Shown piece after piece: positions 7,558 to 39,097 of a stretch of DNA of 64,000 nt. The DNA comes from a bacterium. Its GTDB lineage: Bacteria > Patescibacteriota > Minisyncoccia > Phycocordibacterales > UBA1006. The translations under genes were made by a program, and so were the position numbers. Every line of letters starts with the position of its first letter. The stretch's first letter is position 1. Below the pieces are notes generated by a model, which was not told where the DNA came from, made no database searches, and saw nothing but the letters and a program-made list of their open reading frames with translations. Location: positions 54,734-118,733 of the forward strand of contig JBAWXN010000002.1 in assembly GCA_037144045.1 (NCBI GenBank), written 5' to 3'.

Positions 7558-7570
7558 AAATAATTAATAA

Positions 7571-8275
7571 TTACTTGGTTAATAAATAGCGGTCATATAA
7601 ATGAAGCATGGCAAGGGTTGTAGCGCAGTAGCAATACTTGGTAATGTCTTCGAAAGGTACTACACGAACAACAATATGTTCATATTCTTCTTCAAGTCCC
7701 ATCTTAAGTCCATGGTACGTATCCAGAACTTCTTGGGTCACTTCTTTTTCAACCAGGAACGGATAGATAGCTTCGTTGAGGATTCCAGGTGATAAATAAA
7801 ACGGTTTATCAAGGAGTGGAATAACATCATTCGGAGTAAGTCCTAATCGAGTTACCGCATGCGCTTCTTCTTCGAGTTCACGAAGGATCACTGATTCAGG
7901 CGACGTCTGATCGTCAATAAGACCCGCAACTGATTCCGAAATAGTATTTCCTACGGGAACGCGTGGCTGATCTAAGAGGAGCGCATATTTTTTACCTGCA
8001 CAAGTGAGCACGGTAAGTGCAGACACTGCATAATCACGAATCACCACAATCATTCCCGGGAGTTTACCCGCTGGATGAATAATATCTGCCTTAAGTTTTA
8101 TAAAGAGGATGCGTCCGCTTGGAACTCGATCAACCGATTGAATTTCGATTGCCTCGATAATCCATTCTGGATCAAAGGCGTCGAGCCAATTGGTGAACAG
8201 TAATTCTTGAGATATCGTTGCCGCTTCGATCCCTGTAATAGGAATCACCCGATTGTTTTTGGTGATGGTGTGCAT
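7571..8275 (-). CDS. ADP-ribose pyrophosphatase-like Nudix hydrolase (NudF-like)
   Basis: VAGLIDDQTSPESVILRELEEEAH closely resembles the NudF box PAGLIDEGESVEDVARREAIEEAGL. It sits between prs and nadE in the NAD cluster. Confidence 0.55.
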   Translation of the reverse strand: MHTITKNNRVIPITGIEAATISQELLFTNWLDAFDPEWIIEAIEIQSVDRVPSGRILFIKLKADIIHPAGKLPGMIVVIRDYAVSALTVLTCAGKKYALLLDQPRVPVGNTISESVAGLIDDQTSPESVILRELEEEAHAVTRLGLTPNDVIPLLDKPFYLSPGILNEAIYPFLVEKEVTQEVLDTYHGLKMGLEEEYEHIVVRVVPFEDITKYCYCATTLAMLHLYDRYLLTK

Positions 8276-8375
8276 ATGTGATAAAGTTAAAATACCTGAT
8301 AATCATAGCATGCTTGACTCGCGTCGTGCTATTTGCTATGGTAATTAGTGTACTAATAACACTATATCATATCCT

Positions 8376-10323: not shown

Positions 10324-10983
10324 ATGCCAGATAAATCATTTCTTAACCCAACGCTTGTGGTAGACATTGTATTATTCACCATTGAGGACGGTGATTTGAA
10401 AGTCCTCTTGATTAATCGTGACGGTGATCCTTTTAAAGGATTTGAAGCACTTCCCGGAGGTTACCTCCTTGCGGGTGAAACAACCAAGACTGCTGCAGAG
10501 CGAGTCCTCAAGGAAAAAGCTGGAGTATCCGATATTTATATCGAACAGCTCTACACGTTTGATGAACTCAATCGTGATCCTCGTGGACCAGTATTTTCAG
10601 TAACCTACCTTGCGCTCGTTCCGCCAGGACTCAATCCTGAAGAACAAGGAACGCAACATCCTAAATGGTTTTCCGTGAAAAAACTTCCTAAGTTAGGATT
10701 TGATCACAAAGCCATTATTGATTACGCTAAGGAACGTCTTCAAGGAAAAATTGAATATACTACTATTGCATTTGGAACCCTCCCTAAACTATTTACCTTA
10801 ACCCAAGTGCAGCAAGTATACGAAGCGATTCTTGAAAAAGAAATTGATAAACGAAATTTCCGTAAGAAGATCGACCAACTTGGCTTCCTTAAAGAAACCA
10901 AGCAAACCCTATCTGGTATGCGCCAGCGCCCTGCGAAGTTGTACACCTTAGGTGCGAAATCTAAAACGATTAAATTGTTTTAA
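10324..10983 (+). CDS. nrtR: NrtR-like Nudix-related transcriptional regulator of NAD metabolism
   Basis: N-terminal Nudix fold with a degenerate box (LPGGYLLAGETTKTAAERVLKEKAGV, Glu replaced by Lys). C-terminal winged helix with NFRKKIDQLGFL...RPAKLYTL, characteristic of NrtR. Embedded among nadE/nadD/pncAB/prs. Confidence 0.6.
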   Translation: MPDKSFLNPTLVVDIVLFTIEDGDLKVLLINRDGDPFKGFEALPGGYLLAGETTKTAAERVLKEKAGVSDIYIEQLYTFDELNRDPRGPVFSVTYLALVPPGLNPEEQGTQHPKWFSVKKLPKLGFDHKAIIDYAKERLQGKIEYTTIAFGTLPKLFTLTQVQQVYEAILEKEIDKRNFRKKIDQLGFLKETKQTLSGMRQRPAKLYTLGAKSKTIKLF

Positions 10984-15038: not shown

Positions 15039-15124
15039 AGTATAGATAGAGTATACAAAATATCATGTCTGTGATATATTGTACTTAATACACTAATTAG
15101 TTCATCTTAATAAATTTCATCAAT

Positions 15125-15748
15125 ATGATTGCATTCCTAATTACCATTCTCTTTCTGGTTGCCATAGTATATGTCCTTACCAGAATTATAGCTCTACTAA
15201 ACATCGACATGCAAAATGGTTTCACTCCAGGCGGAGAGCTTGGCGTGAAAGAAGGTGACGTAATTATACCAATAATTAACCGACTCACCTTCTGGTTCAT
15301 CCATATCTTTCGCGCTCTTGTCGTATTTTCTAGAGACTGGCATCCGCGTGTTTCTAAACACTTCAAGGAATTTGGCGGCAATTGGTCAACCCACTGTGTA
15401 ATTAATACACATAGTGCGGAATTCCATAAGGATTTGTTTGTTCCGAAAAATGCCAACATTCTTTCAAAAGGTTTGTACGAAGACGACCAAGCCTACTCGG
15501 CATTCGATAAGAATGCTCGCATCAACGGCATGGACCTAGCCACCTACTTGCGCAAGAAAGGAATAAAGATCCTCTTTGTCACCGGTCTCGCAACAGACTG
15601 GTGTGTGAAGGAAACTGTCCTAGATGCGCGAAAAAATGGATTCTGGGTATTTGTAATCACGAGCGCTATGCGTCCCGTGAATTTGAAACCTGGAGACGAA
15701 GAACGTGCCATCAAGGAAATGAAGGCCGCCGGTGCCATCATTATCTAA
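15125..15748 (+). CDS. pncA: nicotinamidase/pyrazinamidase (isochorismatase family)
   Basis: ALLNIDMQNGF (Asp), FSRDWHP, WSTHCV (catalytic Cys) and GLATDWCV. The N-terminus has an extra 20-aa hydrophobic extension, so the start is uncertain. Confidence 0.8.
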   Translation: MIAFLITILFLVAIVYVLTRIIALLNIDMQNGFTPGGELGVKEGDVIIPIINRLTFWFIHIFRALVVFSRDWHPRVSKHFKEFGGNWSTHCVINTHSAEFHKDLFVPKNANILSKGLYEDDQAYSAFDKNARINGMDLATYLRKKGIKILFVTGLATDWCVKETVLDARKNGFWVFVITSAMRPVNLKPGDEERAIKEMKAAGAIII

Positions 15749-15816: not shown

Positions 15817-17136
15817 ATGACAACCAATAGAACTACAGAAAACCCAAAAACATTCTCAAGTCTTAATCTCGGACAGCTCGACGATTCGATGTTGAACGGC
15901 CAGATTGTTACTTCACTTCTTGAAGATGACTTTTATAAATTTTCCATGGGACAGGTGCTTTTCGACCATCCAGAATATGGCAATGAAATAATGGTTTGGC
16001 GATTCAAATGCCGAACTAAAATCGCACTTGGTGAATATATTACCGAGGCAGATTTCATGAACGAATACCACCATGTCACGAAACTGCGAGCAACAAAGAC
16101 TGAACTACATTACCTCCGAGGAACCAATGAATACGATGTCCGCATGTTTACTGAAGAGTACCTCGAACACCTTGCAAATCTCCAGGTACCTCCCGCAACA
16201 TTTCATGTAACCCCTGATAATCATATCGAAATTGAAGTCGCAGGACCATGGAGTCATGTGATGCATGCAGAAATGCCCATTTTGAAAATAATCAACACCC
16301 TCTTCTATCGCAGTCAGTTAAAAAATATGTCTCGGATACAACGAGAAGCGATCTATGCAGAAGGAATTAAACGACTCCATGGAACGATACAGCAAATCAA
16401 GGAGCATCCGCATGTTAAATTTTCTGATTTTGGAAACCGTCGCGCATTCGGACCCGTGTGGCATGATTATGTAGTGGCTCGATGTGCGGAAGAATTAGGT
16501 GACCAATTTATTGGGACTTCGAACGTTGCCCTTGCATCTAAATATGATCTGTCACCTATCGGAACCTGTGCTCACGAACTTTCTATGGGAATCACTGCAC
16601 TTATGTTCGACGGCACCGGACAGTCCGTAAAGGATTCACTCAACCGACTCCATGAAATTTGGTGGAATAAGTATGGTCAAGGACTCTCAATTAGTCTTCC
16701 CGATACCTACGGCACGACATTCACCCTTGATCTTATGACGGAACAAATGCTCCGCGACTGGAAAGGATTCCGTATCGATTCCAAAGACCCCATGGTGGCT
16801 ATTCCCGAATTGATCGAAAAATATACCGCTCTAGGTATCGATCCAAAAACAAAAATGGCAATTCCTAGTGACGGGCTCACTGTTGAATCAATGATCGCCA
16901 TCGCTGATACATTCCAAGGACAGATGAAAGTATCGTTTGGTATTGGAACGAATCTTACGAACAATATGGGTCTCAAACAACTCTCTATTGTGGTAAAACC
17001 ATATTCACTCGGAGGAAAATACTGCGTGAAACTTTCCGACAACCTCGAAAAGGCTATGGGAGAACCAGAGACCGTTGCTGCTTACAAGAAAGCACTCGGA
17101 TATCACGAAACCTATGACAAAGAAACTATTGTTTAA
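15817..17136 (+). CDS. pncB: nicotinate phosphoribosyltransferase
   Basis: LLEDDFYKFSM (PncB N-terminus), DFGNRRA and GTSNV motifs. 439 aa. Confidence 0.85.
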   Translation: MTTNRTTENPKTFSSLNLGQLDDSMLNGQIVTSLLEDDFYKFSMGQVLFDHPEYGNEIMVWRFKCRTKIALGEYITEADFMNEYHHVTKLRATKTELHYLRGTNEYDVRMFTEEYLEHLANLQVPPATFHVTPDNHIEIEVAGPWSHVMHAEMPILKIINTLFYRSQLKNMSRIQREAIYAEGIKRLHGTIQQIKEHPHVKFSDFGNRRAFGPVWHDYVVARCAEELGDQFIGTSNVALASKYDLSPIGTCAHELSMGITALMFDGTGQSVKDSLNRLHEIWWNKYGQGLSISLPDTYGTTFTLDLMTEQMLRDWKGFRIDSKDPMVAIPELIEKYTALGIDPKTKMAIPSDGLTVESMIAIADTFQGQMKVSFGIGTNLTNNMGLKQLSIVVKPYSLGGKYCVKLSDNLEKAMGEPETVAAYKKALGYHETYDKETIV

Positions 17137-17264: not shown

Positions 17265-18926
17265 ATGAATTCACCAAACGAACAAACACTGAGAGATGCT
17301 GTTTTTGATAAGCTCTCACAGATATTCGAGTTAATTCCGGACGCGACTCAAGATTTATGGAGTGCAGCCACTCGTGGAGCATTCCCTACTGAAACCCTTG
17401 CTGCCATCTACGATGACCTTGGGCTATTTCTGGATTCATATCCCGAATACCGAAGACTTGTGTTGTACATCCCATTTGAGTTACTACCCTATTGCAATGA
17501 CAACTGCACAGTTATGAGTGCGAAACTCAACCAATCTGCACAAACATTCCTCGTCTCTTACCTCAAGAGATGGAACGAGTTACTACACATCAGTGATGTG
17601 CGTGCTAATTTCATGAACGGAGACGTTCCAGAAGACCACCTCTTAACTGAACCCCTGCATCGCACGACCAAAGCAGCGCAGTTGATTCCCTTGCTCATAC
17701 GTAAGAATATTCTGTCTCGAAAACACGCTCAAACATTGTGGCTCGAGTCTGATGGGTTACTTAATGAGACCCTCACAGAAGTTCTTGGTTATACAAGCGT
17801 GCCCACACCGGACGATCTATTTTCTTCATGCGAAATCATTGAGAATCAATTTATCGTTGATAGTCATAATCTGACTGATGCACGAGCAAACTGGCTACGC
17901 CAGGTGCGCATCCATGCACTTACAGAAAAAAATGCGTTGCAGCTTGTGGAAAAAATCAAATTAGGTAATGGTTCGATAGATGATCTGAAAAAATATCTAT
18001 CGGCTCATAGTAGTCCTACGGTTCACCAAACAGGAATTATAGCTCTTCGTGAATATGCTCAGCATCTCGCAAAGACTGACCTGTTATCGGCTCAGCAGTT
18101 AGCAAGCTCGTTTGCAGAACTATTAACAGCGTTATGGGAGACCGCTTCTCATGAGAACAAGGACCTGATAGGAACTCTCGTATCGCATTTTGCATACTTG
18201 AAAATAATTCCGGAAGATAGTTCTTTGTTGCAACTAACTCAGATCCCTTTCCCGTCATTTGCGCGCTTCTTTATAGAAACAACCCATGAAACGAATCAGC
18301 TTTTGGATGAACTGAAACGATTAACTTTGACTATTGAGACCGATGAAGTATCGCAGTATGTCTATCCAATAATTATTGCGTATGGTTCGCAGATAAAAGG
18401 ATACAGTGGAATTGGTGCAGACATTGATAGTGCTGTACTTATAAAACCGGGCACTGAGGTTTCGAAGCGTGAATATATTCATGAAAGGCTCAGTCAGATT
18501 CTGGTCCATGAAAAAATAAAAGAGTTGCCAACTGAGTTTTGGATTACTGAAAGTAACGGAACCATTGGTATTCGAGATTATAAAAGTTTCTCGCATCCTG
18601 ATAATCAGATTGGTGATTCATTATTTATTCATATCCTGCTTCAATGTCCCTGGATCGGAAACAGTGAACTGATTCAGTTACTCAAACCAGCAGTTCACTC
18701 TATCTATACTCGAAACACGATTCCTACCAATCGAAATCTTTGGGCAGAATCACTCGAACACGATATCATTCAGTATCGACTCCTACACAAAGGCTATGCG
18801 AGACTGTTTCCTAAACAAATTCCGGCCACACTTCCTAATGTTATTGATGTTGAAAGTACGTTCTGGGATTCTGGATTCAGAAGACTTGCAACACTTTTGT
18901 ATATCAAGAAGGTCATAGTTCCGTAA
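17265..18926 (+). CDS. large hypothetical protein with a C-terminal minimal nucleotidyltransferase (MNT/Pol-beta-like) domain
   Basis: 553 aa. Residues about 365-395, IIAYGSQIKGYSGIGADIDSAVLI, form a G[S]-x10-DxD nucleotidyltransferase-fold signature. The helical N-terminal region of about 360 aa has no recognisable family. Confidence 0.45.
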   Translation: MNSPNEQTLRDAVFDKLSQIFELIPDATQDLWSAATRGAFPTETLAAIYDDLGLFLDSYPEYRRLVLYIPFELLPYCNDNCTVMSAKLNQSAQTFLVSYLKRWNELLHISDVRANFMNGDVPEDHLLTEPLHRTTKAAQLIPLLIRKNILSRKHAQTLWLESDGLLNETLTEVLGYTSVPTPDDLFSSCEIIENQFIVDSHNLTDARANWLRQVRIHALTEKNALQLVEKIKLGNGSIDDLKKYLSAHSSPTVHQTGIIALREYAQHLAKTDLLSAQQLASSFAELLTALWETASHENKDLIGTLVSHFAYLKIIPEDSSLLQLTQIPFPSFARFFIETTHETNQLLDELKRLTLTIETDEVSQYVYPIIIAYGSQIKGYSGIGADIDSAVLIKPGTEVSKREYIHERLSQILVHEKIKELPTEFWITESNGTIGIRDYKSFSHPDNQIGDSLFIHILLQCPWIGNSELIQLLKPAVHSIYTRNTIPTNRNLWAESLEHDIIQYRLLHKGYARLFPKQIPATLPNVIDVESTFWDSGFRRLATLLYIKKVIVP

Positions 18927-18996: not shown

Positions 18997-20190
18997 TTAT
19001 ACTCTTGTACGAACTTTACCATTACCACCAATTCCTGATAAGCCTTTGTCGAGCTTGTCCCATGGAATGGTCGCACCTAACTGAATCATGGCCGCAATAT
19101 AACGGTATTCTTCATCAGGAACAGTAATTTTAGGGAATTCGATAATTGCCAAGGTGAAGCGAGTAATGTTTCTTTCTAAGCGAACATAATCGGCACCAAC
19201 TGCAATATCAAGCTGCTTCAGCATTTGATCGCGATTGATTGCGCCTACTGCGGCAGGAAGAGATGGATTCTCTAAAACCTCTTTAATGCGCGTAGCGTCA
19301 TAAGCCAAGGCTTTTGCAATCGGAATACCGAGTCCTGCAAACACCTTATTAATGCTTTCATTCACTGCTTCTGCTTCGTCATGCAAGCCGTTAGTTTCTG
19401 GTGGGGTAATCATACCAGACATTAAGCCAGTCTTTCCACCACCTAACTGTCCCATTAATAACATCGCAATATTGGCACTACTACCCGCTCCTGCATTGTA
19501 TGCTTCAAGCCACTGTGAAAGCATTTCGTTGAAGCCACGCAATGAACCCCAAAGATTTGCTTCTAATTTTGCAAGAAATGCTTTTTGGCGAGCATCGCTC
19601 ATGAATGAGCCTTCGATTCCCATAGCGTTCAATACCTCAGCATAACTTCTGGTAACAACCAGCTTTTGAAGCTTAAAGTACTCAGCTCCTACCGGTTCAG
19701 CTTGCTCTTCTGCAAACACTTCCATTTTTTCTTTGATAATCTTTGGGAGTCCAAACAGTCCAAGCTTATTTGCTATTCCTGCTTTTACAGCAGAAAGCAC
19801 TTCAGTCTTTCCTACTTTCAACTCACCACCAACTTTCAGAGAAGCAACAAAGCTTTCATCTTCGGGCACACTTGGCAATACTGCATCATACGCATTTGGA
19901 GTAGCACGTTCCTCTGCAACTACAACCGGCGCACCGCGCAATTTAGCGAGGTTCAACTTAAGTTTCCCTAATGGGATATTAAGCGACCCAAGCGCTTTAA
20001 TTAATTCCTCATCGCTGAAAGCTTCCTTACTGGAAAGCACTTCGAGAGCCGCAGTAGCTGATTTTTCATCCACTGGATCGCCAGTGTGAACTGCAAGCAA
20101 CGCAGAAATTTCATCGAGGTTTTTTTCTACCGCCTCGGCAAAGGGCTGAACTCTGTCGTTCCAACCCTTAAAATAATTTGTTGTACTCAT
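18997..20190 (-). CDS. hypothetical protein (397 aa)
   Basis: No confident family. Contains a Gly-rich stretch NAGAGSSANIAMLLMGQLGGGKTGLMSG. Confidence 0.3.
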   Translation of the reverse strand: MSTTNYFKGWNDRVQPFAEAVEKNLDEISALLAVHTGDPVDEKSATAALEVLSSKEAFSDEELIKALGSLNIPLGKLKLNLAKLRGAPVVVAEERATPNAYDAVLPSVPEDESFVASLKVGGELKVGKTEVLSAVKAGIANKLGLFGLPKIIKEKMEVFAEEQAEPVGAEYFKLQKLVVTRSYAEVLNAMGIEGSFMSDARQKAFLAKLEANLWGSLRGFNEMLSQWLEAYNAGAGSSANIAMLLMGQLGGGKTGLMSGMITPPETNGLHDEAEAVNESINKVFAGLGIPIAKALAYDATRIKEVLENPSLPAAVGAINRDQMLKQLDIAVGADYVRLERNITRFTLAIIEFPKITVPDEEYRYIAAMIQLGATIPWDKLDKGLSGIGGNGKVRTRV

Positions 20191-20342
20191 TACTTTTTCT
20201 TTTTTAGTTTAAAAATACAATTTCTACAATCAAGATATCCCATTTAAAGATATTTGTCAAGCAACCTGTGGATAAGTGTAATTTGTACACTAAAAAACAG
20301 ATTCTTGCGAATCTGTTGATACTATCTCCTAGTATTATGTTG

Positions 20343-21737
20343 TTATAAGAGCATTTTATCATCCTCCGTAGGGCCAAATGATACCATTCTAACCGGAACC
20401 TTGAGCTGCTCCATCAACTGCTGTGCGCAGAGCTCGGCAATTGCACCATCATCAGCGTAATCTAAAAGATTATGACTAACAATGTTTGGCGTGCACTGCT
20501 GTAGCAGTTCCCCGAGCTTTTGTTGACGGCTGAAGCAGTCCTCAGGTTTTCCAGTAAACAATTTCATGTCACCGTGTTCGGTAAAAAACGAAGGATCTGT
20601 AGCATTGGTATAGCTCGTGCATAGTTTCCAATCACCCATTACTTTTACTTGATCAAACCAAGTAATTGCAAGTGCATCGAAAAATTGAGGACCACCGCAG
20701 GCAGCAATCGCATAACGAAGCGCTACAGCATCAAGCGGACCGATACGAATCTTCCCCTGCCAACGATTATCGTCCTTACTACTATCAGGTAGCATATGCG
20801 GAAGCATTTCTGGAGATTCGGTAACGAGAGGGCCTGCACCGTGGCGGACTTGGTATGCACGACTAATGCCAAGCTTTACCATACGTCCATCATACCCACA
20901 TTCATTAATCATCTGGAGTGTATTACTCGGCAAGGTTTTAAGATAGCTGGTATGCGGATGAAAGCCAACATAACGATCAGTAAGAACCCCATGAGAACTT
21001 TCCACAATAACCTTACCTTCCTGTCCTAAAATATCGCGCTTCAGATATTCCAAATCAACTATTTTTACCAGACTTGCGAACTTGTTAAATTCTAGAACAA
21101 TGCGATTTACAAAATCATCGTCATTTAATAGTTCTAATTGCTGACTCGCAATCATCCGGTCAGTATCTGGAAATTTCTGAACTAATTCAACAATAGGTCG
21201 GAGTTCTACACGTTTCATAGTGCGTACTGCCTCCAATCGTGCGCGTAATGTAGATGCATTACAATCTTTCGCATAAATCGCGAGCTCAGGATATTGCTCT
21301 GCATCTTTCAGCGCTTCTCCACCTCCTATTCCTACCGTACCTTTTGGTTTATCGCCTCGCGCTAATTCTTTGAGCTTTGAGGAAATACTATGGAACGGAG
21401 TAATGCAGAGCGCATCCTCATCAACAGTGACAAGGTCATACACATTACTCACTCCTGATTCATATTTCAGAATATTAGCTTCGTGGATAAAGCGATAAGG
21501 TTCAATTACAAACAATTTACTGATGTGGGTTCTGAGTCCTTCAAAGGTCCCACAGCCCATCTGACTAAATACTCCTGATTGACCACGACTTGTTTTAACT
21601 CCGTGACCACCCTGAGCACCTCCAACTTTGATGACGGTATGTGCACCTGGGAAGGTACACAACTTATGTACCACACCTCCCTTGCCTCCATCACCAGGAC
21701 CTAGATCGGTTACTGTATAGAGTGTTTTGTCTTCCAT
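20343..21737 (-). CDS. divergent adenylosuccinate synthetase (PurA/PurZ) family ligase
   Basis: Core PurA blocks are recognisable: LGPGDGGKGG (cf. GDEGKGK; Asp13 kept, Lys18 replaced by Gly), GGAQGGHGV (cf. NAGHT; catalytic His kept), ESSHGVLTD (cf. EGAQGT), RAYQVRHGAGPLVTE (cf. KAYTTRVGGGPFPTE), and IGPLDAVALRYAI (cf. GWLDLVALRYA). 464 aa with insertions. Confidence 0.55.
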   Translation of the reverse strand: MEDKTLYTVTDLGPGDGGKGGVVHKLCTFPGAHTVIKVGGAQGGHGVKTSRGQSGVFSQMGCGTFEGLRTHISKLFVIEPYRFIHEANILKYESGVSNVYDLVTVDEDALCITPFHSISSKLKELARGDKPKGTVGIGGGEALKDAEQYPELAIYAKDCNASTLRARLEAVRTMKRVELRPIVELVQKFPDTDRMIASQQLELLNDDDFVNRIVLEFNKFASLVKIVDLEYLKRDILGQEGKVIVESSHGVLTDRYVGFHPHTSYLKTLPSNTLQMINECGYDGRMVKLGISRAYQVRHGAGPLVTESPEMLPHMLPDSSKDDNRWQGKIRIGPLDAVALRYAIAACGGPQFFDALAITWFDQVKVMGDWKLCTSYTNATDPSFFTEHGDMKLFTGKPEDCFSRQQKLGELLQQCTPNIVSHNLLDYADDGAIAELCAQQLMEQLKVPVRMVSFGPTEDDKMLL

Positions 21738-21782
21738 ATCTCAATAATTTACTGTTGAAAATGTTTTTGAAAAATGTGTGTA

Positions 21783-21812
21783 AAAAAGGGCGGCATGATC
21801 GCCGCCCCTATT
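21783..21812 (-). terminator. Rho-independent terminator of the vWA/kinase-like operon (minus strand)
   Basis: GGGCGGC-atgatc-GCCGCCC stem followed by a T-run when read on the minus strand. Confidence 0.5.
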
Positions 21813-21843: not shown

Positions 21844-22995
21844 TTAGAGCCAAATGTTTGATTCGTTCTTTTTGGCTTTTCGGGTATCTGTGGCGCCCTT
21901 ATCAATTTCTTCCGAAGCATCTGCTACGTCAGAACCAATAGGCCACAAATCGTTTTTATCAGCGAACATATCACCTGCTACGGGCAATTTTGAAAAATTC
22001 TCAAGTGCAGCCTGAGCCCCAATCGGAATTTTAGAAACTGCGCGAACAATGGTTGATGCCACACTACTGGAAAGCTTGGCTTCGTTTACTAAAAACGCTT
22101 CAAGGTTTTGTAAATCAAGCGTACCTTCTGTTAAGCCAATAATTGCTGCCTGCACCTCTGGTAGGTATTTGGTATCCTCCAAAATAATTACTCTATCATT
22201 ACCATAAATCTCTTTCCAGAAATTGGTAACGCTCGAATTAGTACCTATTTGCAACATAAATGCATGGGCTCGGGTTAGTAAATCATTCACCACCTGCTTG
22301 AGCTCTGGTAATTGTTTTTCATTGATGTCGTGTCCGTTTTCACGAACCTTATCGAGCACCTCTTCACCAAAGACTCTTTTAAGGTTGCTTACACTGAATT
22401 TTTTTCTGCTATCCGCATCGGTAGCCATAAAATGATAATGTTTCAATTCATAGCGCTGTAGCTGGGTATGCGTCAGATAAGCCGCACCAAACAATCCATA
22501 GTGTGGATCCTCTGTTCCATCACCGCCCTGCTTTTCAGGAACCATCAGGCGCATTTGCTCTGCAATTTGCTCATCCATTTCAGCCTGAGAACGGCACAGA
22601 ATGTAATTATCTGTCACGTCTCCGAAAATTGCTGTAATCATTTGCACATCATAGCGCGAAAGTGGTGCCAGAGGACCCCTTGCTAACAGGTTATACGTTT
22701 TTGGAAGTGAATGAAACGCAAGGTCCACATTACCTCCCATTGATCCTGTTGTGTCGAGCTCCATTTCAATAAGCATCGCAACACCCCGAACCAAGGTAAA
22801 GCGTTTTCCTTTTGCTTCAAACGGTCCATAAGATCGTCTGATAACACCGTAGCCTTTTGGGTCTACTAATTCATGAAGGCCTTTACCTTCTTTATGGCGT
22901 TGCTCACCTTTACTGGTTGCTGATCCGCCATCTTCTTTTACTTCAGTAGCTACACGTTTGTAAGCTGTTTCTGAAAATGTACTTCTTCCTGACAT
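21844..22995 (-). CDS. vWA (von Willebrand factor A) domain protein
   Basis: MIDAS motif LDTTGSMGGN and the downstream ITAIFGDVTDNY block fit a vWA fold. The start was chosen at the internal MSGRSTF because ORF 21844..23154 overlaps the upstream gene. Confidence 0.5.
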   Translation of the reverse strand: MSGRSTFSETAYKRVATEVKEDGGSATSKGEQRHKEGKGLHELVDPKGYGVIRRSYGPFEAKGKRFTLVRGVAMLIEMELDTTGSMGGNVDLAFHSLPKTYNLLARGPLAPLSRYDVQMITAIFGDVTDNYILCRSQAEMDEQIAEQMRLMVPEKQGGDGTEDPHYGLFGAAYLTHTQLQRYELKHYHFMATDADSRKKFSVSNLKRVFGEEVLDKVRENGHDINEKQLPELKQVVNDLLTRAHAFMLQIGTNSSVTNFWKEIYGNDRVIILEDTKYLPEVQAAIIGLTEGTLDLQNLEAFLVNEAKLSSSVASTIVRAVSKIPIGAQAALENFSKLPVAGDMFADKNDLWPIGSDVADASEEIDKGATDTRKAKKNESNIWL

Positions 22996-23065
22996 TGGTA
23001 CTCTTTTTTTGTTTTGGTTAAAAAATAAATAGTTAAATACAATTAGTGATTCTTGCGATACCTTA

Positions 23066-23926
23066 CTATACAGGATAGGCTGCGAACTTGTGAAACCCAA
23101 GAGGCCAGAGTGACTTGATGAGCTTGTAAAATCGAGTATGTGCTTGTTGTGCATCTGATTCTGCTCCCGCTTTGAATTCTTTCAATAGATCTTCATAGCT
23201 AGAATTAATCATTTGCTCATCCGGCACAAGAGTCCCTGTTTCTAAATCTGCACCTAATACCTCAAGAACCGCATCGGTAACCGCTGCGATTTCCTCGGTA
23301 GTTTCCTGTGGAGAAAGCTTAGTTTCAATAACCGCCTTACTCCAATCGAATACTGCCACATAGTGCTGTTCACGATTGATTAGAATGTTTTCTGTGGTTA
23401 AATTATTAATAACCACATTAATACTCTGAGTGAATACCAACATTTTGAGTAGCTTACCAAGTATCCACGCGCTCGTTCTCGGATCCACACGGACCTGGTC
23501 GCGAGACGTTATGAACGACAAAGGTGCAAGCTCGTTTAATTTTCCCGAAGGGTTAATGTTTGGAAATCCAAGCACGATTACCCTGCGGTTTTCATGCTCG
23601 GTCATAACAAAGGTCTCAACGACCTCAGGAAAACAAAAGTGATAATTCAAAGGTATCTTTTCAGGATACTTTTTCGCAAATTCTGCTTCGATTACATCTG
23701 ATTCGCTACGCATCGTTTTTAAAAGGTACGCCTCACGGTCGAGCACAGGATTGTGCTCAGCCTTTTTGGCTACCTTAAAAATTGCCGTAGTTCCGTCTTC
23801 GAGTACGCATTCGCGTAATCGGTAAATGTCAGTCTCGCCAATTTCTTGCCTGACCTGGTACGTCTTGCCCGCTGGGCTTCTTATTACTATGTCCATTACT
23901 GTTTCTTTTTTAAATTTAGTTATCAA
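23066..23926 (-). CDS. protein-kinase-like fold protein lacking the catalytic HRD Asp (putative pseudokinase)
   Basis: Gly-loop-like EIGETDIYRL, VAIK-like AIFKVAKK, an alphaC Glu, NNLTTENILI in place of HRDLKPENIL, and DWS in place of DFG. About 70 nt upstream of the vWA gene. Confidence 0.4.
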   Translation of the reverse strand: MITKFKKETVMDIVIRSPAGKTYQVRQEIGETDIYRLRECVLEDGTTAIFKVAKKAEHNPVLDREAYLLKTMRSESDVIEAEFAKKYPEKIPLNYHFCFPEVVETFVMTEHENRRVIVLGFPNINPSGKLNELAPLSFITSRDQVRVDPRTSAWILGKLLKMLVFTQSINVVINNLTTENILINREQHYVAVFDWSKAVIETKLSPQETTEEIAAVTDAVLEVLGADLETGTLVPDEQMINSSYEDLLKEFKAGAESDAQQAHTRFYKLIKSLWPLGFHKFAAYPV

Positions 23927-24100
23927 AAAACAAATATGCCGTATATGTTATATCAAATTATTAGGATATGTCAATACTTCTCGATGAACTGTATAATTTG
24001 TTGCATTATGGCTTATTTAGTGTTATTATAACACTAAGAATGATCATGTGCAAGCACCTCCTAGTCCCCCTCCCTTGTAAAAGCATGCTACTATAATTCT

Positions 24101-25048
24101 ATGCAACAATTTAGATTTTTTAAAAAAGTAGATGAATATCGTACCTATATCTACGAAGAAATATTCACCCATCACGAATTTAGAAATAACCTTTTTTATC
24201 GTGGACTTATCGAATTCATTATTGAACACCGCGCCCCTATATTCTTCTCACTAACCAAAGACGAGGAATTCTCACATTTTACCCAATACTTTAACGCAGT
24301 GCTCGATCGAGGGGACTACTACAAAAATGATTTCATAAGAAGCATGTATTTTGCGCATGATTTTGTGCATATGCTTTTTAACAATCCTTTGCGTCCTCGT
24401 GATATGACTTTTGAAAAGTATTGCGAAGTACTCAACGTAAACGAATGGATTGCGTCTAATGAAACTGAAGTTTATACCTATTTTAGAATCGATGGTGCAC
24501 GTCACCACGGATTAGATTATACGATTCTCTATGATCTCCTAAAATACGCTGGGCACTCACAACCTGAAATAAAAAAACTGCTTGAGTTTAGAAAGCACGT
24601 AATTGGTGGTGGCGGTGAAGCAGTTCTTGAACAACACCCAGAAGCCACCATGGTGTTTAATTACTTGAGAAAGTTTAAAGAAAACAACAAAGCCTGGTGT
24701 AAGCTTTGGTATGAAGGCTTCCCTGAAATACCTGCGGCTTATACTGACGAACGCATGTGCCTCCCTGTACTTGAATACGATAAAATACTACGACACTACA
24801 CTCCTGGTATCCACGTGAACAATCAACAAGAGGCCTACGAGTACAACATGTTGCTCAACATTAAAAACCTTGCACTCCTTGCAGGGTTACCAGAAGAGCA
24901 TATTCCAAAAACTTTTGACGATTGCGAAAAAACACTTGAGCAACTCGAAGGAAAAATCATTATGCCTAAAGTCGCCGAGGAATTTCATTATACTTATATC
25001 AAAAATAAGAAGGTGGGAACTCCTGAGAAAAAAGAACTGAATCCATAA
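24101..25048 (+). CDS. hypothetical protein (315 aa)
   Basis: ORF with its own terminator. No family recognised. Confidence 0.35.
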   Translation: MQQFRFFKKVDEYRTYIYEEIFTHHEFRNNLFYRGLIEFIIEHRAPIFFSLTKDEEFSHFTQYFNAVLDRGDYYKNDFIRSMYFAHDFVHMLFNNPLRPRDMTFEKYCEVLNVNEWIASNETEVYTYFRIDGARHHGLDYTILYDLLKYAGHSQPEIKKLLEFRKHVIGGGGEAVLEQHPEATMVFNYLRKFKENNKAWCKLWYEGFPEIPAAYTDERMCLPVLEYDKILRHYTPGIHVNNQQEAYEYNMLLNIKNLALLAGLPEEHIPKTFDDCEKTLEQLEGKIIMPKVAEEFHYTYIKNKKVGTPEKKELNP

Positions 25049-25105: not shown

Positions 25106-26461
25106 TCATCCTACTAAAGCTGATTGTTTCTCTGTGCCGTAATACTCTTCATACTTTTCAGTATTGAATGAGTAAGCACCCTGGAAAAATTCAATGACTT
25201 TTTTAGTATCACGTAGTGCATTAGCAGGAGCAATAGAAGCGCCTGGTGAAGGAGCAATATTACCTAAGAAATTTGGTCCGACTACTTGAGTATCACCTAA
25301 TTCTAATGTTCGCTTGATGGTATCTACTAATTGCGGGCGTAAGCCTCTTCCTTTGTGGAAAACTAACTGAGAAGATTGCAAACTTGGAATAATCTTGCGC
25401 GCTGATTGTGTAAATAAATCTTTGCCAATCAGTGGTAACTGAAATGACATATTCTGTGCCATGTACCCTAACATTTCAGGGTCTGCAAGTATTCCCGTGA
25501 GGGTTGCAACGCCGTCCCATGTTGGAACTGAAACACGTAAGAAGTCCATTACTGTTGACCAATCACCGTCTACCAATGTAGGCAACACAATTGCAGTAGG
25601 TCCGAAACGAGTAATGTTTGGATTATGCATTTCAGCATCACCATGCACGGCAGCAAACGGACGCTTAGGGTTTTGTACCGTGTACACCTTTCCGATAAGT
25701 AACGGTACTATCGAATCGTAAAAATTTCCTCCGATAGGTAAAATACCCAAATGTTGTCCCAAGCCTAGCGCTTTTGCAGCGATAAGACTATAGGCACCGG
25801 TTGCAAAGATAACCACATCCGCAGTGTACTGAAAACCTTTTGAATCAGTCAGTAAGTACTTATCACCAATGCGAGTTATCTGGCGTTCCATAATACGCGT
25901 ATTCATATAGCGCAACAATCGGCCAGTACTCACCGCATCATTAACATACCATTGTGCAAGTAATCCAAAATCAATCGTGTAGCCAGGATTAGAAATTGCC
26001 ACTACGTTTTCCTTCGGATTGCGCCCCTTCATTACCATTGGTTCTCTACGTGCAATTTCTGCACCATAAATGAGTTCCATTTCAGGAAAGAAGGGACTAA
26101 ATTCCTCGCTGCGAGTTGATACAATGTCACACTCTTCATCACCTACACCCAACAAAAATTTGGGTCCTTTGCGATACATGTCTGGGTTAACACCAATCAA
26201 CTTTTTAAGGTCAGTAACGGTGATATCCGTATCTGCTTTTACTTTTACCACTTTGTCACGTTTGTAGTGTTCAGTACTGCCATCGTGAATGGTTCCCGAA
26301 TTATTGGTTACTTTACTATTAAGGTTACCTATAGTATCCCCCATTTCAAAGAGTGCAATTGTAGGTATATCGGTAAAACGCACTAACTTGTTTACTAGTG
26401 AACCACCTACTACGCCACCACCTACTACTGCAACGTTTACGTGTCTTTCTATTCTGTTCAT
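25106..26461 (-). CDS. FAD-dependent oxidoreductase of the malate:quinone oxidoreductase / L-2-hydroxyglutarate oxidase family
   Basis: Rossmann VAVVGGGVVGGSL. NSKVTNNSGTIHDGSTEHY resembles the Mqo block [20 protein letters not shown]. 451 aa. Confidence 0.55.
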   Translation of the reverse strand: MNRIERHVNVAVVGGGVVGGSLVNKLVRFTDIPTIALFEMGDTIGNLNSKVTNNSGTIHDGSTEHYKRDKVVKVKADTDITVTDLKKLIGVNPDMYRKGPKFLLGVGDEECDIVSTRSEEFSPFFPEMELIYGAEIARREPMVMKGRNPKENVVAISNPGYTIDFGLLAQWYVNDAVSTGRLLRYMNTRIMERQITRIGDKYLLTDSKGFQYTADVVIFATGAYSLIAAKALGLGQHLGILPIGGNFYDSIVPLLIGKVYTVQNPKRPFAAVHGDAEMHNPNITRFGPTAIVLPTLVDGDWSTVMDFLRVSVPTWDGVATLTGILADPEMLGYMAQNMSFQLPLIGKDLFTQSARKIIPSLQSSQLVFHKGRGLRPQLVDTIKRTLELGDTQVVGPNFLGNIAPSPGASIAPANALRDTKKVIEFFQGAYSFNTEKYEEYYGTEKQSALVG

Positions 26462-26540: not shown

Positions 26541-27647
26541 TTACTTGGTATTTTCAAGCTTGTTTATAACGGTTTCTAAACCATTCCCCTTACAAAGGGC
26601 AGTGGTATCAGCAACGATATTGTTTGTGTACTTATCAAGATTTTCCAAAAATAATTTGAATGTCTCGGAATCTATTGCATCATGCATAACTCCAAAATTA
26701 TTTTCCTCAATAATATGCGCGTTCATTTGTTGCTCGTAAATAGGAAGCGGTATTGCGTAGACGGGTATTTCTAAATACATCGCTTCAGCAATTAATGTAT
26801 GCCCTGCAGTTGTAATAATTCCGTTTACTAACACTAATACTTTCATGAACTCCTCGTCATTATACTTATTCCAATATACGTTTACGGGCAATTGAGTCTG
26901 TGGGATACTCTGGGCAAAAACATGAAACACAACATCAGGGAATTTTTTAAAAACAGAGACGATAGATTCATGAGATTGTTTAATATCTTGATTGCTCGTT
27001 AAATACACAAGAATATTTTTCTGTTTAGAATTAGTACTTCTTTTCAAATGAACAACCGATTCTTTTATGATTGCAGGAACCACTAAAACATTCATACCCT
27101 CCTTTCCTTTTTTAGACACCTTAAAGAATGAACACGCAATACGTTCTACTGCAGTCGGGAAAAATAATTGCAACCTAGCTACCTCATCGGCATAGGTACA
27201 ATTATTAAGTGTTTCGGGAAAATCTCCGATTAAATATTTACTTTGTTGGTCAATGGTTACCAATGGTACGGCGTGTTCATAGGCGATACCTGCGCTGACC
27301 GGTTCGTAGTCACTTACTACAAGATCAGGAATTCCTAGCCAAGCTATCATTTCTATAATCGCCTTATTATTTATTGCGTCAAAATCAATATTATTTTTTT
27401 CAAGTTTTTTTGTCGCTTTAAAATCTATTCCTGTTTTATTTCCCACATAAAAAGGCACAGCAACTTCAAGTACTTTTATATTAATATCACCACCGAATAA
27501 AATATTACTGGTTTGGAAACTGGAACCGTAAGCAAAAATAGCAATTCGATTTGTTTTAGCAAGATGTTGAATAATAGGTAATTGTCGTTGCATGTGACCA
27601 TTTCCTATTCCACATATTCCATAGAGAATCTTTTTTTTGTTATTCAT
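26541..27647 (-). CDS. GT-B fold glycosyltransferase (GT1/MurG-like)
   Basis: N-terminal ICGIGNGHMQR loop. C-terminal TAGHTLIAEAMYLEIPVYAIPL..EQQMNA, the classic GT-B donor-binding region. 4-nt overlap (ATGA) with the upstream gene. Confidence 0.6.
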   Translation of the reverse strand: MNNKKKILYGICGIGNGHMQRQLPIIQHLAKTNRIAIFAYGSSFQTSNILFGGDINIKVLEVAVPFYVGNKTGIDFKATKKLEKNNIDFDAINNKAIIEMIAWLGIPDLVVSDYEPVSAGIAYEHAVPLVTIDQQSKYLIGDFPETLNNCTYADEVARLQLFFPTAVERIACSFFKVSKKGKEGMNVLVVPAIIKESVVHLKRSTNSKQKNILVYLTSNQDIKQSHESIVSVFKKFPDVVFHVFAQSIPQTQLPVNVYWNKYNDEEFMKVLVLVNGIITTAGHTLIAEAMYLEIPVYAIPLPIYEQQMNAHIIEENNFGVMHDAIDSETFKLFLENLDKYTNNIVADTTALCKGNGLETVINKLENTK

Positions 27648-28429
27648 AGTTTTTTTATTTCATCCGTCACAAATTCAAGTGCTCCTTCGATGGTGTATAC
27701 AGGTACTGTGGTTTTTCTCAGGTGTTGCGATAAATAACGCTCCGTTCCTTCTGGCGCTCTACCCACTAGTACATCATCATTATCATCTAACACAACATCA
27801 GCGTTTACCGCATCCATGAAATAGGGATAGAGCATGTGCACTCGTGAATCACCCACTACTTGTTTTAAAATATTTTTATAACTATTCAATTTTACTACAA
27901 CAACCGCATCTATTTCCCCGTAAGCTTCTGATTGATAATCAATAATAATTCTGTCCCAAACTTCTACTCGATTATTACTCATCAAGATATCAGGGATTGA
28001 ATCAGTATTTTTTATACTTACCGCAGTGGTACCTGCATTCATAAATAACTTATCGTTAATAAACGAAACGATTGTTTTATTTCCAGAATCAATTCTTGCT
28101 CCTTGTTCTAATAAATTCAAAGCAACTGTTGTTTTCCCTGAGCCTGAATGACCAATGATAAGTACCCGTTTATGGATCGAAACACATGCACCATGCACAC
28201 AGAACTGTTTTCTTGTGAGTAACTCCCTGCGCAGCAAACCATAGAGTTTTTGTGCGAAACCAGCTACTCCATCATACGTAACTGACAGGTCTATTTTTTC
28301 CGGCACTTGAGAGCTTTTTTTAATTCCGGGAACATAAGCGCTTAACACAAGCTCTTCGTTTTGAGTAATACCCTGTTCATGGATAAGCTCTATTGTTATT
28401 TGATTTTCGACACTATAGTAAGTTTTCAT
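27644..28429 (-). CDS. HprK C-terminal-domain-like P-loop protein (putative small-molecule or protein kinase)
   Basis: VHGACVSIHKRVLIIGHSGSGKTTVALNLLEQGARIDSGNKTIV aligns with the HprK/P C-domain block [43 protein letters not shown]. Translationally coupled to both flanking glycosyltransferases. Confidence 0.55.
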   Translation of the reverse strand: MKTYYSVENQITIELIHEQGITQNEELVLSAYVPGIKKSSQVPEKIDLSVTYDGVAGFAQKLYGLLRRELLTRKQFCVHGACVSIHKRVLIIGHSGSGKTTVALNLLEQGARIDSGNKTIVSFINDKLFMNAGTTAVSIKNTDSIPDILMSNNRVEVWDRIIIDYQSEAYGEIDAVVVVKLNSYKNILKQVVGDSRVHMLYPYFMDAVNADVVLDDNDDVLVGRAPEGTERYLSQHLRKTTVPVYTIEGALEFVTDEIKKL

Positions 28430-29415
28430 AATGATTTAATTGCTTTGTAAACAGCAACGCCTCCGTCACTTCCAAATTCATCTAATAATGTTTTTGTGCC
28501 ACATATTGTCGGCAAGTTTCCTTCTAAACTATTTTCATCGCTTATCGATGCACTTACTAATCCCTTTTGTTTCATAAGTTCTAATTGTTCTTTCTGGCTT
28601 TCATTAGCAGGAGGTAACCACACTGTAGGAATATCGTAACTTGCTGTGTCATAAATATTTCCAAGTCCTGGGGTCATGAATGCCAATTTTGTTCTCTTGA
28701 GCAGTTCCTCCATTTCATCACGCGCATAGCTTTTTACATTGAATTCTGAAAGACGTTCTGCTACCGCACTACTGGTTGCAATAACAACCTTGTCCAATGA
28801 ACCTAATAAGGCTTGGACTGTTTTAATATTCTGGCGCGCATAGTCTTCGACATCATCTAATTTCCAATGCGGATTTTGTAGACCACCCATATTCAGTAAC
28901 ACAACATCTTTATTCTTTGCAGGTTCTTGAACAGAAACGATTGGGGGTACTACTATTGTATTTTTAGAAAATTTATTACGCTCATTCTTAATGCGGTCCG
29001 TTACTCCAATAAAGTTTTGTGCGATATACATATCACATCCTGTAATTACCGGATGAATGTCTTTCCAAAACCAAGTCAGGGGGTCATAAATAATTACCTG
29101 GAGTCCTAATGATTGAGCACGAGCTGCCATTTCAAAATCAAGTGCGGTAATAAATACGTCATATTTCTTTATAATCAAATCAAGCTCAGTAGGTTCATAA
29201 TCAGCACTATCATACACCGCATCGTAAGCGAGCGATCGTTGGAGATCAAGAGTATGACGAGTACCCATATATGCCAGGGTTTCATAGTCATTCCTTAAGT
29301 AAGGAAAGAATGTAGCAATGGCTGCTGCTGGCCCAAATCCAAACGGTTCGGCATTGAGTAAAATTTTACGTGATGTTTTTTTCATATGATTCAATTCCAT
29401 ACATGAGTTTTCCAA
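28426..29415 (-). CDS. GT-B-like glycosyltransferase (divergent)
   Basis: N-terminal Gly-rich NAEPFGFGPAAAIATFF. C-terminal TPGLGNIYDTASYDIPTVWLPPANESQKEQ fits the GT-B C-domain pattern. The start may be an internal Met (29400 or 29385), which reduces the overlap with the PhyH gene. Confidence 0.45.
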   Translation of the reverse strand: MENSCMELNHMKKTSRKILLNAEPFGFGPAAAIATFFPYLRNDYETLAYMGTRHTLDLQRSLAYDAVYDSADYEPTELDLIIKKYDVFITALDFEMAARAQSLGLQVIIYDPLTWFWKDIHPVITGCDMYIAQNFIGVTDRIKNERNKFSKNTIVVPPIVSVQEPAKNKDVVLLNMGGLQNPHWKLDDVEDYARQNIKTVQALLGSLDKVVIATSSAVAERLSEFNVKSYARDEMEELLKRTKLAFMTPGLGNIYDTASYDIPTVWLPPANESQKEQLELMKQKGLVSASISDENSLEGNLPTICGTKTLLDEFGSDGGVAVYKAIKSL

Positions 29416-30502
29416 GTAAGGATAACTGTTCTGGTTTTCTTACTTCTTCTAACATTTTCGGATTAGTATATCTTGGTTTTTTACTCGCATGCATGAGTGC
29501 TTCGCGGTTATTACTTCCTATTCCAGAACGAAACGCTTCGTGACGTGCATTCACTAGTGTATGATCAGTTTCGCAAGCAGGCCCGGCTGCAGTATAGGCA
29601 ACATACCGAATATCTTGAGAAATATTTTCAGTATTTGCATGAGTAGTACGACTATCCCATAATACCAAATCGCCTTTACGTAGTGGAAATGCTTGAAGCT
29701 GTTTATCGATCCAAGAAACACCTGCAAGAGATTCTGGTAGTTCAACATATTCACCCTTGTTCGGTACATGCGGCTTATAATCAAGAAAATGGTTTCGTGA
29801 TCCAATTGCCGCAACGAACGTTCCTCGCTCAACTGGACAATCTACTAGGGCAAGCACGCCTTGAACCGTTCTAAAGTCAGGATGAATCAACGGATTCTGA
29901 TCGACATGTAACGATAGTGCTTTTGATTCTGCATGGTGAGGCAATTTGACTCCTAACCGATCAAAACTAGTCCAAATATCGTATCTATTCCAAATAAGTA
30001 CCTGAGCCAAGTAATGAATTACCGACTGACGAATTTGTGCAAGTATATCATCATGATACAACTCGAAGAATCCTCGAGAGATAAATGGAGTACCTGCATC
30101 ATCAACAGGGATAGCATTCCACGAATCAGCATTATTCAATTCGCAAACACCATTACTCATCAGCTTAACCACTTCATTCATTCTTGCAATAGTTGCATCA
30201 CATTGATGTACACTTATTACATTCTTGATAACTACTACACCAAATTTGCTCCAAGTATCTACTAACGAAGCTTCATCAGCAAGTGGATCGAATGCGATCG
30301 CATATCCATCACGATCAAGAGGATACTTTTCAGCCCGGCGAACAGAAACCAACTTTTTCAAATTTGTAGACGAACTGTTTGTTTTAAGACTTTCTTTAAC
30401 CTCTGAAATAAGTTTGATAACATCAGTATCTGATGACGAATTGGTTTTCGTATTTAATTGTAATTTCGTAGCTAGCTGCTTAATAATTGGTGTAATAATC
30501 AT
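29366..30502 (-). CDS. phytanoyl-CoA dioxygenase (PhyH)-family Fe(II)/2-oxoglutarate oxygenase
   Basis: HVDQNP (HxD) and a distal His in TTHANTEN, in a 378-aa protein with PhyH-like spacing. Confidence 0.6.
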   Translation of the reverse strand: MIITPIIKQLATKLQLNTKTNSSSDTDVIKLISEVKESLKTNSSSTNLKKLVSVRRAEKYPLDRDGYAIAFDPLADEASLVDTWSKFGVVVIKNVISVHQCDATIARMNEVVKLMSNGVCELNNADSWNAIPVDDAGTPFISRGFFELYHDDILAQIRQSVIHYLAQVLIWNRYDIWTSFDRLGVKLPHHAESKALSLHVDQNPLIHPDFRTVQGVLALVDCPVERGTFVAAIGSRNHFLDYKPHVPNKGEYVELPESLAGVSWIDKQLQAFPLRKGDLVLWDSRTTHANTENISQDIRYVAYTAAGPACETDHTLVNARHEAFRSGIGSNNREALMHASKKPRYTNPKMLEEVRKPEQLSLLGKLMYGIESYEKNIT

Positions 30503-38891: not shown

Positions 38892-39021
38892 ATATTACGT
38901 TCTCAGGCACTATAAGCGCTTTCGATTGTTGAAACACTATACATGATATCTTACGATAAATCAAATAATACTGAACGTCTTCTTGAGAAAATAAGGCAAA
39001 TAAGGTATAGTATCCCTGCTT

Positions 39022-39095: not shown

Positions 39096-39097
39096 AC

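Follow-up and report, generated by a model that had tools for sequence, protein, structure and literature searches.

The window analysed here is a stretch of 64,000 nucleotides (64 kb) from contig JBAWXN010000002.1, and its subject is a pair of adjacent minus-strand genes, the first (A) encoding a protein of kinase fold that is best read as a pseudokinase and the second (B) a protein of von Willebrand factor type A (vWA) fold. The pair proves to be part of a five-gene cluster that recurs across the Patescibacteria, or candidate phyla radiation (CPR), and its upstream region carries the same type of operator, that of the regulator NrtR, as the genes for salvage of nicotinamide adenine dinucleotide (NAD) in the same window.

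The kinase-fold and vWA gene pair

Both genes are present on the minus strand, with the following features.

23066–23896, minus strand: gene A, kinase-fold protein and predicted pseudokinase, 276 aa, ATG start at 23896
22996–23065, minus strand: A–B spacer of 70 nt, without a terminator (sequence scan)
21844–22995, minus strand: gene B, cytoplasmic vWA protein, 383 aa, ATG start at 22995
21782–21809, minus strand: intrinsic terminator 3′ of B, a 9-pair stem with the core GGGCGGC-GATCAT-GCCGCCC followed by six U (folding)
24025–24052, minus strand: promoter-like site upstream of A, TGCACA-16-TATAAT with an extended TG (consensus match only)

Alignments of homologues support both starts, ATG 23896 being the most likely one for A. 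The homologues of A begin at the position equivalent to ATG 23896, so that TTG 23926 is a mechanical start of the open reading frame (ORF) which they do not support, and a 436-aa ORF for B (start 23154) overlaps A and is likewise unsupported. The operon layout described in the first-pass annotation, with its minus-strand orientation, 70-nt spacer and terminator after B, holds; the terminator was overlooked by a pattern scan and confirmed by folding, which places the hairpin ~35–62 nt past the B stop codon with a free energy of −17.9 kcal/mol (z = −3.25). Because the spacer is short, no terminator lies within it and the median A–B gap across 64 loci is 23 nt, A and B are probably co-transcribed. 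The leader of A contains no riboswitch at Rfam gathering thresholds.

The window is a piece of Patescibacteria (CPR) chromosome. The 383-aa product of B is 100% identical to an NCBI protein from an uncultured bacterial metagenome-assembled genome (MAG), and its homologues are nearly all from Patescibacteria, including Paceibacterota, Minisyncoccia, Saccharimonadia, Sungbacteria, Ryanbacteria and others. The remainder of the window holds ordinary bacterial housekeeping genes (RNase Y, CTP synthase, trigger factor and CCA-adding enzyme) and four tRNAs. A phage origin of the window is ruled out by the identity of B to a CPR MAG protein and by these housekeeping genes, and a blastn search of the window from 20 to 26 kb against a phage collection returned no match.

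The AlphaFold2 (AF2) model of A (predicted local distance difference test score, pLDDT, 96.6) presents a bilobal kinase fold, for which the best PDB matches obtained with Foldseek are CASK, CaMKII, AAK1, CDKs (CDK2) and STK40, with E values of about 1e-9. The structure comparison that the first-pass annotation had called for thus identifies eukaryotic-type kinases and pseudokinases as the closest structures, and not RIO, Kdo or APH proteins. The family profile of A matches the catalytic loop of CK2alpha (E 9e-7), the alignment setting 'HSQGIsvgkLsgdNILI..FDWS' of the A family against 'HSKGIMHRDVKPHNVMI..IDWG' of CK2alpha and pairing I-N-N with the CK2alpha H-R-D, while in Pfam Pkinase A scores 14.8 bits, below the 31.7 cut-off. 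The kinase fold without the HRD aspartate, as first proposed, is therefore well founded.

Conservation across 108 non-redundant sequences of the A family bears on the question left open at first, namely whether A is a pseudokinase or an atypical kinase. At the HRD-Asp position, where the window protein reads I-N-N, an aspartate occurs in only 14 of the 108 sequences (13%). The β3 lysine is retained in 67% and is a glutamine in 31%, and the αC glutamate is retained in 67% and lost in 33%. The catalytic-loop asparagine (Asn170 in the window protein) and the DFG-like aspartate (Asp184, in 'DWS') are kept more widely, in 94% and 82% respectively. W144 and H178 are conserved in every sequence, and P90, D138 and S142 in 98–99% (D138 and S142 at 98%). 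There is no GxGxxG motif and hence no Gly-rich loop. In the AF2 model only about 10 residues separate D184-W-S from the next helix (H196–213), which shows that A has no activation segment of the DFG...APE type. Pseudokinase is the better reading of A, since the weakly kept catalytic residues and the missing activation segment together argue that selection on A is not for protein phosphotransfer.

In its bilobal fold of the eukaryotic protein kinase (ePK) type A resembles the pseudokinases CASK, STK40, the JAK JH2 domain and HER3, the first two of which are among its best PDB matches, and with pseudokinases that keep an ATP pocket it shares the loss of the HRD aspartate and the retention, in most members, of the catalytic-loop asparagine and the DFG-like aspartate. 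As in those proteins, A probably acts as a scaffold or switch. Unlike the eukaryotic pseudokinases it is bacterial, is only 276 aa long, lacks both Gly-rich loop and activation segment, carries an invariant motif of its own (RVDPRTSAW...H178) and is always paired with a vWA protein, to which it is once fused.

The assignment of B as a vWA protein of the metal ion-dependent adhesion site (MIDAS) type stands on the side of structure and motif but finds no counterpart in sequence profiles. The AF2 model (pLDDT 90.2) has the Rossmann-like α/β fold of vWA domains. D81-x-T83-x-S85, E162 and D193 make up a MIDAS-like, putative metal site and are, together with D126, invariant across 124 non-redundant sequences and also in the phage homologue and the divergent paralogues; the position of the usual MIDAS threonine appears to be held by the invariant E162. 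No VWA profile of Pfam or NCBIfam matches B, and a search of PDB sequences with the B family profile found nothing. A proof by sequence profile was accordingly abandoned, and it is the structure comparison, together with the motif, that carries the vWA assignment. The N-terminal extension of B is strongly conserved, and its disordered tail, which looks like a docking peptide, closes with a near-invariant tryptophan. The family comprises 403 clusters among 1.84 billion representative proteins (full HMMER pass), and B is 50–60% identical across the closer relatives listed. From the vWA/MIDAS adaptors that partner AAA+ proteins (NorD, CbbO, CoxE, BchD and ViaA) and from the integrin β I-like domains, B is set apart by the lack of a Pfam VWA match, by its D-x-T-x-S motif with an invariant glutamate where threonine is usual, by its own N- and C-terminal extensions, by the small size of its family and by pairing with a pseudokinase where those systems use a MoxR ATPase.

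The five-gene cluster and its phage counterpart

The first-pass annotation had placed the pair between a divergent PurA-like ligase and genes of unknown function. The ligase and the other genes do lie beside A and B, but they are conserved partners and not background, as shown by a comparison of 85 loci (79 from GTDB species representatives and a few from metagenomes) in which ORFs were called and clustered and the conserved neighbours, comprising the C, D and E families and the NAD-salvage genes, were labelled by similarity to the window proteins and to Pfam-annotated loci. Three further genes complete the cluster in the window.

20343–21737, minus strand: gene C, divergent PurA-family ligase, 464 aa (Pfam)
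18997–20190, minus strand: gene D, conserved unknown protein, 397 aa (ORF clustering)
17265–18926, plus strand: gene E, Polβ nucleotidyltransferase, 553 aa, convergent with D (Pfam, alignment)

All 85 loci carry B, 83 carry C, 73 A, 71 E and 64 D. In 54 loci the flanking sequence is long enough to judge the whole cluster, and 35 of these have the complete set of five. Most often A, B, C and D follow one another on one strand and E comes after them on the other. The tightest linkage is that of B to C, which are adjacent in 83 of 85 loci; the median gap between them is 52 nt. The five families diverge in step, with correlations of r = 0.40–0.72 between their pairwise sequence distances, which fits inheritance as a unit. 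The genes flanking the cluster vary among lineages. The cluster was traced across Paceibacteria, Saccharimonadia, Falkow-, Uhr- and Moranbacteria and Peribacteria (labels of the MAG records). Examination of neighbourhood conservation thus shows the pair to belong to a five-gene syntenic cluster, and because this synteny spans Patescibacteria classes and the distances of A and B are correlated with those of their neighbours, the pair is not patchy or mobile. Nine cluster loci (L029, L030, L034, L038, L039, L044, L048, L053 and L073) carry the labels Gammaproteobacteria, Omnitrophota, Bdellovibrionales, Deltaproteobacteria or Fimivivens; on account of their gene content they are probably mis-binned or mislabelled CPR contigs.

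Paralogous second copies also occur, as A′–B′ pairs in L043 and L063 and as a C′–B′ pair in L031. A metagenomic protein of 679 aa (P0263) is a natural fusion of A and B, the single such protein in the database, and provides a Rosetta-stone argument for a physical interaction of the two; its kinase-like half lacks the equivalents of both Asn170 and Asp184.

C matches Pfam Adenylsucc_synt with 112 bits but scores only 83.5 and 81.8 bits against the NCBIfam purA models, whose cut-offs are 402 and 396, and so misses the equivalog level. D16 of C is nearly invariant, and K19 and H45 are invariant with the phage homologue included. These three residues are the equivalents of the PurA catalytic Asp13, Lys16 and His41 (Escherichia coli numbering). 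The equivalent of Gln224 is a histidine, and the aspartate-binding loop 'TTGRRRR' reads 'WQGKVRV'. The CPR and mycobacteriophage members of the family therefore present a kept catalytic triad alongside a changed substrate pocket. The family corresponds to PHROG 1211, which is labelled '2-aminooxy adenylosuccinate synthetase' (PurZ-type), a label that is probably unsafe as a functional call for these members. E combines an MNT-type core, in which GS...DxD is invariant, with a large helical N-terminal region in a family of about 550–650 aa. The N-terminus of D weakly resembles the N-terminal helix-hairpin-helix (HhH) domain of Rad51 (E 0.033, not significant).

One gene beyond E, an 830-aa protein with Vault_3 and MVP_shoulder, domains of the eukaryotic major vault protein, is encoded in L001 (16287–18779) and in L002. 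A vault connection was set aside, as this gene occurs only in these two loci, which are overlapping assemblies of one Paceibacterota MAG, and it was deemed coincidental.

A first hint from the PHROGs collection led to a counterpart of the cluster in the Bixzunavirus mycobacteriophages, such as Alice, where the A, B and C families occur in the same order as gp246, gp247 and gp249 (PHROGs 3043, 2971 and 1211). The kinase-like gp246 (positions 6647–7720 of locus L085) reads 'HGAITPDN', with H-G-A at the HRD position, and so likewise lacks the HRD aspartate, while this phage homologue of A exceeds the Pfam Pkinase threshold with 37.9 bits. Its N-terminal extension of ~80 aa contains an HPD motif and resembles DnaJ at a sub-threshold level (E 0.0039, 17.7 bits), which hints at recruitment of Hsp70. 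The vWA homologue gp247 (L085 7756–9540) carries 'DVTGS' and, among viral proteins, matches B best in structure (E 2e-13). It is split by a Hint-like intein, running from 'CNTPD...' to '...SSN' before the first C-extein cysteine. The intein is inserted just before the conserved β4 'GDE' aspartate motif and so falls at the predicted metal site. The PurA-like gp249 (L085 9806–11134) is 33% identical to C. The phage trio differs from the window in the DnaJ/HPD-like extension of the A homologue, in the intein of the B homologue and in the lack of D and E homologues, none of which was found in phages by tblastn; gp3, considered as a candidate for E, is RlaP and unrelated to it. No described function for gp246, gp247 or gp249 was found in the literature. 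Within IMG/VR only one contig carries B.

NrtR-type operators and the NAD genes

Four sites of the NrtR type, together with the NAD genes that two of them precede, are found in the window as listed here.

24017–24037: NrtR-type site TTAGTGTTATTATAACACTAA, a perfect palindrome, upstream of A (pattern scan)
20274–20292: NrtR-type site AAGTGTAATTTGTACACTA, upstream of D (pattern scan)
8346–8364: NrtR-type site, upstream of nadE–nrtR (pattern scan)
15077–15095: NrtR-type site, upstream of pncA–pncB (pattern scan)
8376–10319: nadE, upstream of nrtR
10324–10983, plus strand: nrtR, Nudix and NrtR winged-helix regulator, presumed regulator of the cluster (NrtR_WHD 5.8e-24, NUDIX 2.1e-12)
15125–15748: pncA
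15817–17136: pncB

Scanned for TAGTGT-N7-ACACTA, one mismatch being tolerated, the window yields four sites against 0.11 expected, all of them intergenic. The motif fits the NrtR operator as published (Rodionov et al., 2008; PMC2330246), a palindrome of 21 bp whose core is GT-N7-AC. The site upstream of A has the 21-bp form TTAGTGT-N7-ACACTAA, the match to the scanned pattern occupying 24018–24036. Its midpoint falls on the TATAAT −10 box of the promoter-like site directed towards A, and the divergent gene at 24101–25048 shares it. By sequence, the four sites appear to define a small regulon consisting of nadE–nrtR, pncA–pncB, D and the A–B operon with this divergent gene.

Other CPR loci, 1.16 Mb in all, hold 41 copies of the pattern, compared with 0–7 in shuffled sequence, and the genes that these copies precede are A, nrtR, pncA, nadD/nadE, E and D. 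In the 350 nt before the start, a copy with no more than 1 mismatch is present for A in 14 of 72 loci and for pncA in 7 of 10, compared with 13 of 328 background ORFs, and when up to 2 mismatches are allowed the best site upstream of A falls 132–250 nt before its start in 20 of 21 loci. In 20 of 85 loci, the window counted, a gene for an NrtR-like Nudix regulator is found no more than 8 kb from the cluster, often directly upstream of A, and pncA, pncB, nadD and nadE also recur near the cluster. On these operator statistics, from the window and from the other CPR loci, the A–B operon very probably belongs to the NrtR regulon, at least in lineages using this operator. The arrangement resembles known NrtR regulons in its nearby gene for a Nudix protein with a winged helix-turn-helix and in the 21-bp GT-N7-AC palindrome upstream of pncAB, nadDE, nrtR and A–B, and differs from those reported in 2008 in that no PurA-like ligase, nor either of the terms 'purA' and 'adenylosuccinate', appears in that paper (PMC2330246).

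The divergent gene at 24101–25048 (plus strand), which has the operator region in common with A, encodes a 315-aa protein without a family match and adjoins a gene for a DAO/Mqo-like FAD oxidoreductase (25106–26461, minus strand). These two genes accompany the cluster in 4 loci only, presumably those of close relatives of the window genome.

A proposed role for the pair and the alternatives to it

The reading that we favour, to which we give a probability of about 0.4, is that A–B constitutes a pseudokinase–vWA adaptor or regulatory unit which serves the five-gene cluster, is controlled by NrtR and has a role in adenine-nucleotide and NAD homeostasis. A would be a pseudokinase with a nucleotide pocket that no longer phosphorylates proteins, and would form a two-subunit heterodimer with B, a cytoplasmic vWA protein whose MIDAS metal site would clamp an acidic residue of a partner. 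Through the MIDAS the heterodimer would dock onto a partner from the cluster, most likely C; the enzymes served would be the PurA-family ligase C and the Polβ nucleotidyltransferase E, with D as an unknown partner. As the operator is common to A–B, D, nadE–nrtR and pncA–pncB, the cluster would be de-repressed together with NAD salvage when NAD is consumed and ADP-ribose releases NrtR, this being the direction of regulation that we infer. The unit might, for example, control or assemble a ligase that re-makes an adenylate-type nucleotide for NAD salvage.

A number of observations weigh against this proposal. We infer contact among A, B and C from adjacency and a single fusion protein. With Asn170 retained in 94% and the DFG-like aspartate in 82% of sequences, A may keep some catalytic or nucleotide-hydrolysing activity. 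An operator with at most 1 mismatch is present in only about 19% of A upstream regions, a figure that may be a lower bound, since NrtR motifs drift between lineages, but that could equally be read as lineage-restricted regulation. In the window, C and E have promoters or terminators of their own and no operator, and no purB was seen among the annotated ORFs. The phage trio lies between Pnk (gp244) and the RlaP nucleotidyltransferase (gp3; PF10127, 2.7e-50), a context of RNA repair and not of NAD. Finally, one Parcubacteria clade dispenses with A and D altogether (L059 3768–7826, and similarly L070, L071, L075, L076 and L082), presenting upstream of B–C–E an AAA+ ATPase, a 345-aa vWA paralogue of B and a 305-aa pyruvate-kinase-barrel/HpcH-like protein.

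A more far-reaching version of the proposal, which we regard as rather doubtful, would have the five genes form an undescribed, NrtR-controlled and Patescibacteria-specific adenylate/NAD pathway that is partly common to large mycobacteriophages. Here a PurA-type ligase with an altered pocket, acting for instance on a dinucleotide that is damaged or contains inosine monophosphate, would be gated or assembled by the pseudokinase–vWA heterodimer and modified by a dedicated nucleotidyltransferase. If true, it would introduce a new logic of enzyme regulation and add a new branch to NAD metabolism, in organisms that rely on their hosts for nucleotides.

The clade without A suggests a second view, in our estimate an unlikely one, in which B acts as a maturation or remodelling chaperone in the manner of the vWA partners of MoxR-type AAA+ systems (CbbQ–CbbO, NorQ–NorD and CoxD–CoxE). 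Its MIDAS would dock on C, E or D to assemble, activate or metal-load them, with A replacing the ATPase as a nucleotide-dependent switch. The tight B–C linkage and the AAA+ ATPase (PF00004, 1.1e-21) that adjoins the B paralogue in that clade both speak for this view; however, that ATPase falls outside the MoxR type and occurs in only about 6 loci, and the cluster holds no metal-cofactor enzyme. Nor are PurA enzymes known to need a maturation factor.

Less probable again is that A is an active, if atypical, phosphotransferase or nucleotidyl-transferase along the lines of SelO, SidJ or small-molecule kinases, which would act on B, on a nucleotide or on an ADP-ribose-type metabolite through non-canonical residues. 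The widely kept Asn170 and DFG-like aspartate would suit such an enzyme, the invariant W144 and H178 and the near-invariant D138 and S142 could form an alternative active site, and the phage homologue passes the Pfam Pkinase threshold. These points have to be set against the substitution or loss of the β3 lysine and αC glutamate in about a third of the family, the unconserved HRD-Asp position, the missing Gly-rich loop and activation segment, and the A–B fusion protein, in which the equivalents of Asn170 and Asp184 have themselves been lost.

The phage context and the nucleotidyltransferase fold of E would also be compatible with a role in RNA-end repair or modification, in which E and D, as a possible HhH protein, would act on RNA while C and A–B provide or regulate nucleotides. 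The trio flanked by Pnk and RlaP would then be a parallel locus, E contributing its MNT-type core and D its weak likeness to the Rad51 HhH. This seems improbable, as E is not homologous to RlaP, the CPR clusters contain no ligase, RtcB or Pnk gene, the HhH match of D is not significant and the NrtR operator indicates NAD metabolism and not RNA damage.

NAD metabolism is a known battleground between phages and their hosts, and the carriage of the A–B–C trio by phages would accord with the idea, put forward in the first-pass annotation, of a signalling or anti-phage conflict module in which the vWA protein senses an invader protein and its kinase-like partner relays the signal to effectors. vWA–kinase and vWA–ATPase pairs do occur in conflict systems (PMC7159879), yet with a similarly small chance of being correct this reading is the least supported of the four rivals: neither the five cluster proteins nor the product of the adjacent gene F matches a PADLOC-DB 2.0 defence model, effector domains such as a nuclease, TIR, protease or pore-former are missing, the cluster is syntenic across Patescibacteria classes with correlated divergence and not patchy, the identity of B among its closer relatives is of a housekeeping kind and the family is almost absent from IMG/VR. 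Membership of a defence system was rejected on the PADLOC result. The cluster likewise departs from the TerY-P triads (vWA, PP2C and kinase) and from ArnB/ArnC-D, modules in which a vWA protein goes with a Ser/Thr kinase, in that its kinase partner lacks the catalytic aspartate, its conserved partners are a PurA-like ligase and a nucleotidyltransferase, and neither PP2C nor FHA is found among the conserved neighbours, although no search was aimed at PP2C. The case cautions that not every vWA–kinase pair is an immunity module.

To return to the adaptor proposal, its individual domains are of known kinds, while their combination, the control by NrtR and the sharing between CPR and phages appear new. 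We know of no report of a vWA, pseudokinase or Polβ nucleotidyltransferase gene as an NrtR target, a point on which no search was made. No description of the cluster was found in the searchable literature, and it is absent from a Patescibacteria transposon-sequencing paper and its supplements as well as from surveys of jumbo phages, of NAD and ADP-ribose (NAD-ADPr), of kinase-like proteins of the oral microbiome and of inteins. Patescibacteria account for a large share of bacterial diversity, and their tiny genomes are rich in conserved genes to which no function has been assigned. Five of these genes are here joined into one cluster and, through a recognisable operator, connected with NAD salvage, a link that turns 'hypothetical proteins' into a hypothesis that is testable in the few cultivable Saccharibacteria. 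The analysis also defines a vWA family invisible to Pfam and a family of bacterial pseudokinases whose partner is fixed, while the A–B–C trio is carried by well-studied, genetically tractable mycobacteriophages.

Two further observations concern the remainder of the window. The minus-strand run at 26541–30502 comprises four co-directional genes, whose products are a Glyco_trans_1_3 glycosyltransferase, a P-loop protein weakly resembling the C-terminal domain of HPr kinase, a 329-aa protein of unknown kind and a PhyH-type dioxygenase, and looks like a small modification or biosynthetic cluster. A tRNA-Gly gene (39022–39095, plus strand) overlaps the 5′ end of a mechanical ORF of the CCA-adding/poly(A) polymerase family (38943–40613, plus strand), and the true start codon of the polymerase gene must therefore lie downstream of the tRNA.

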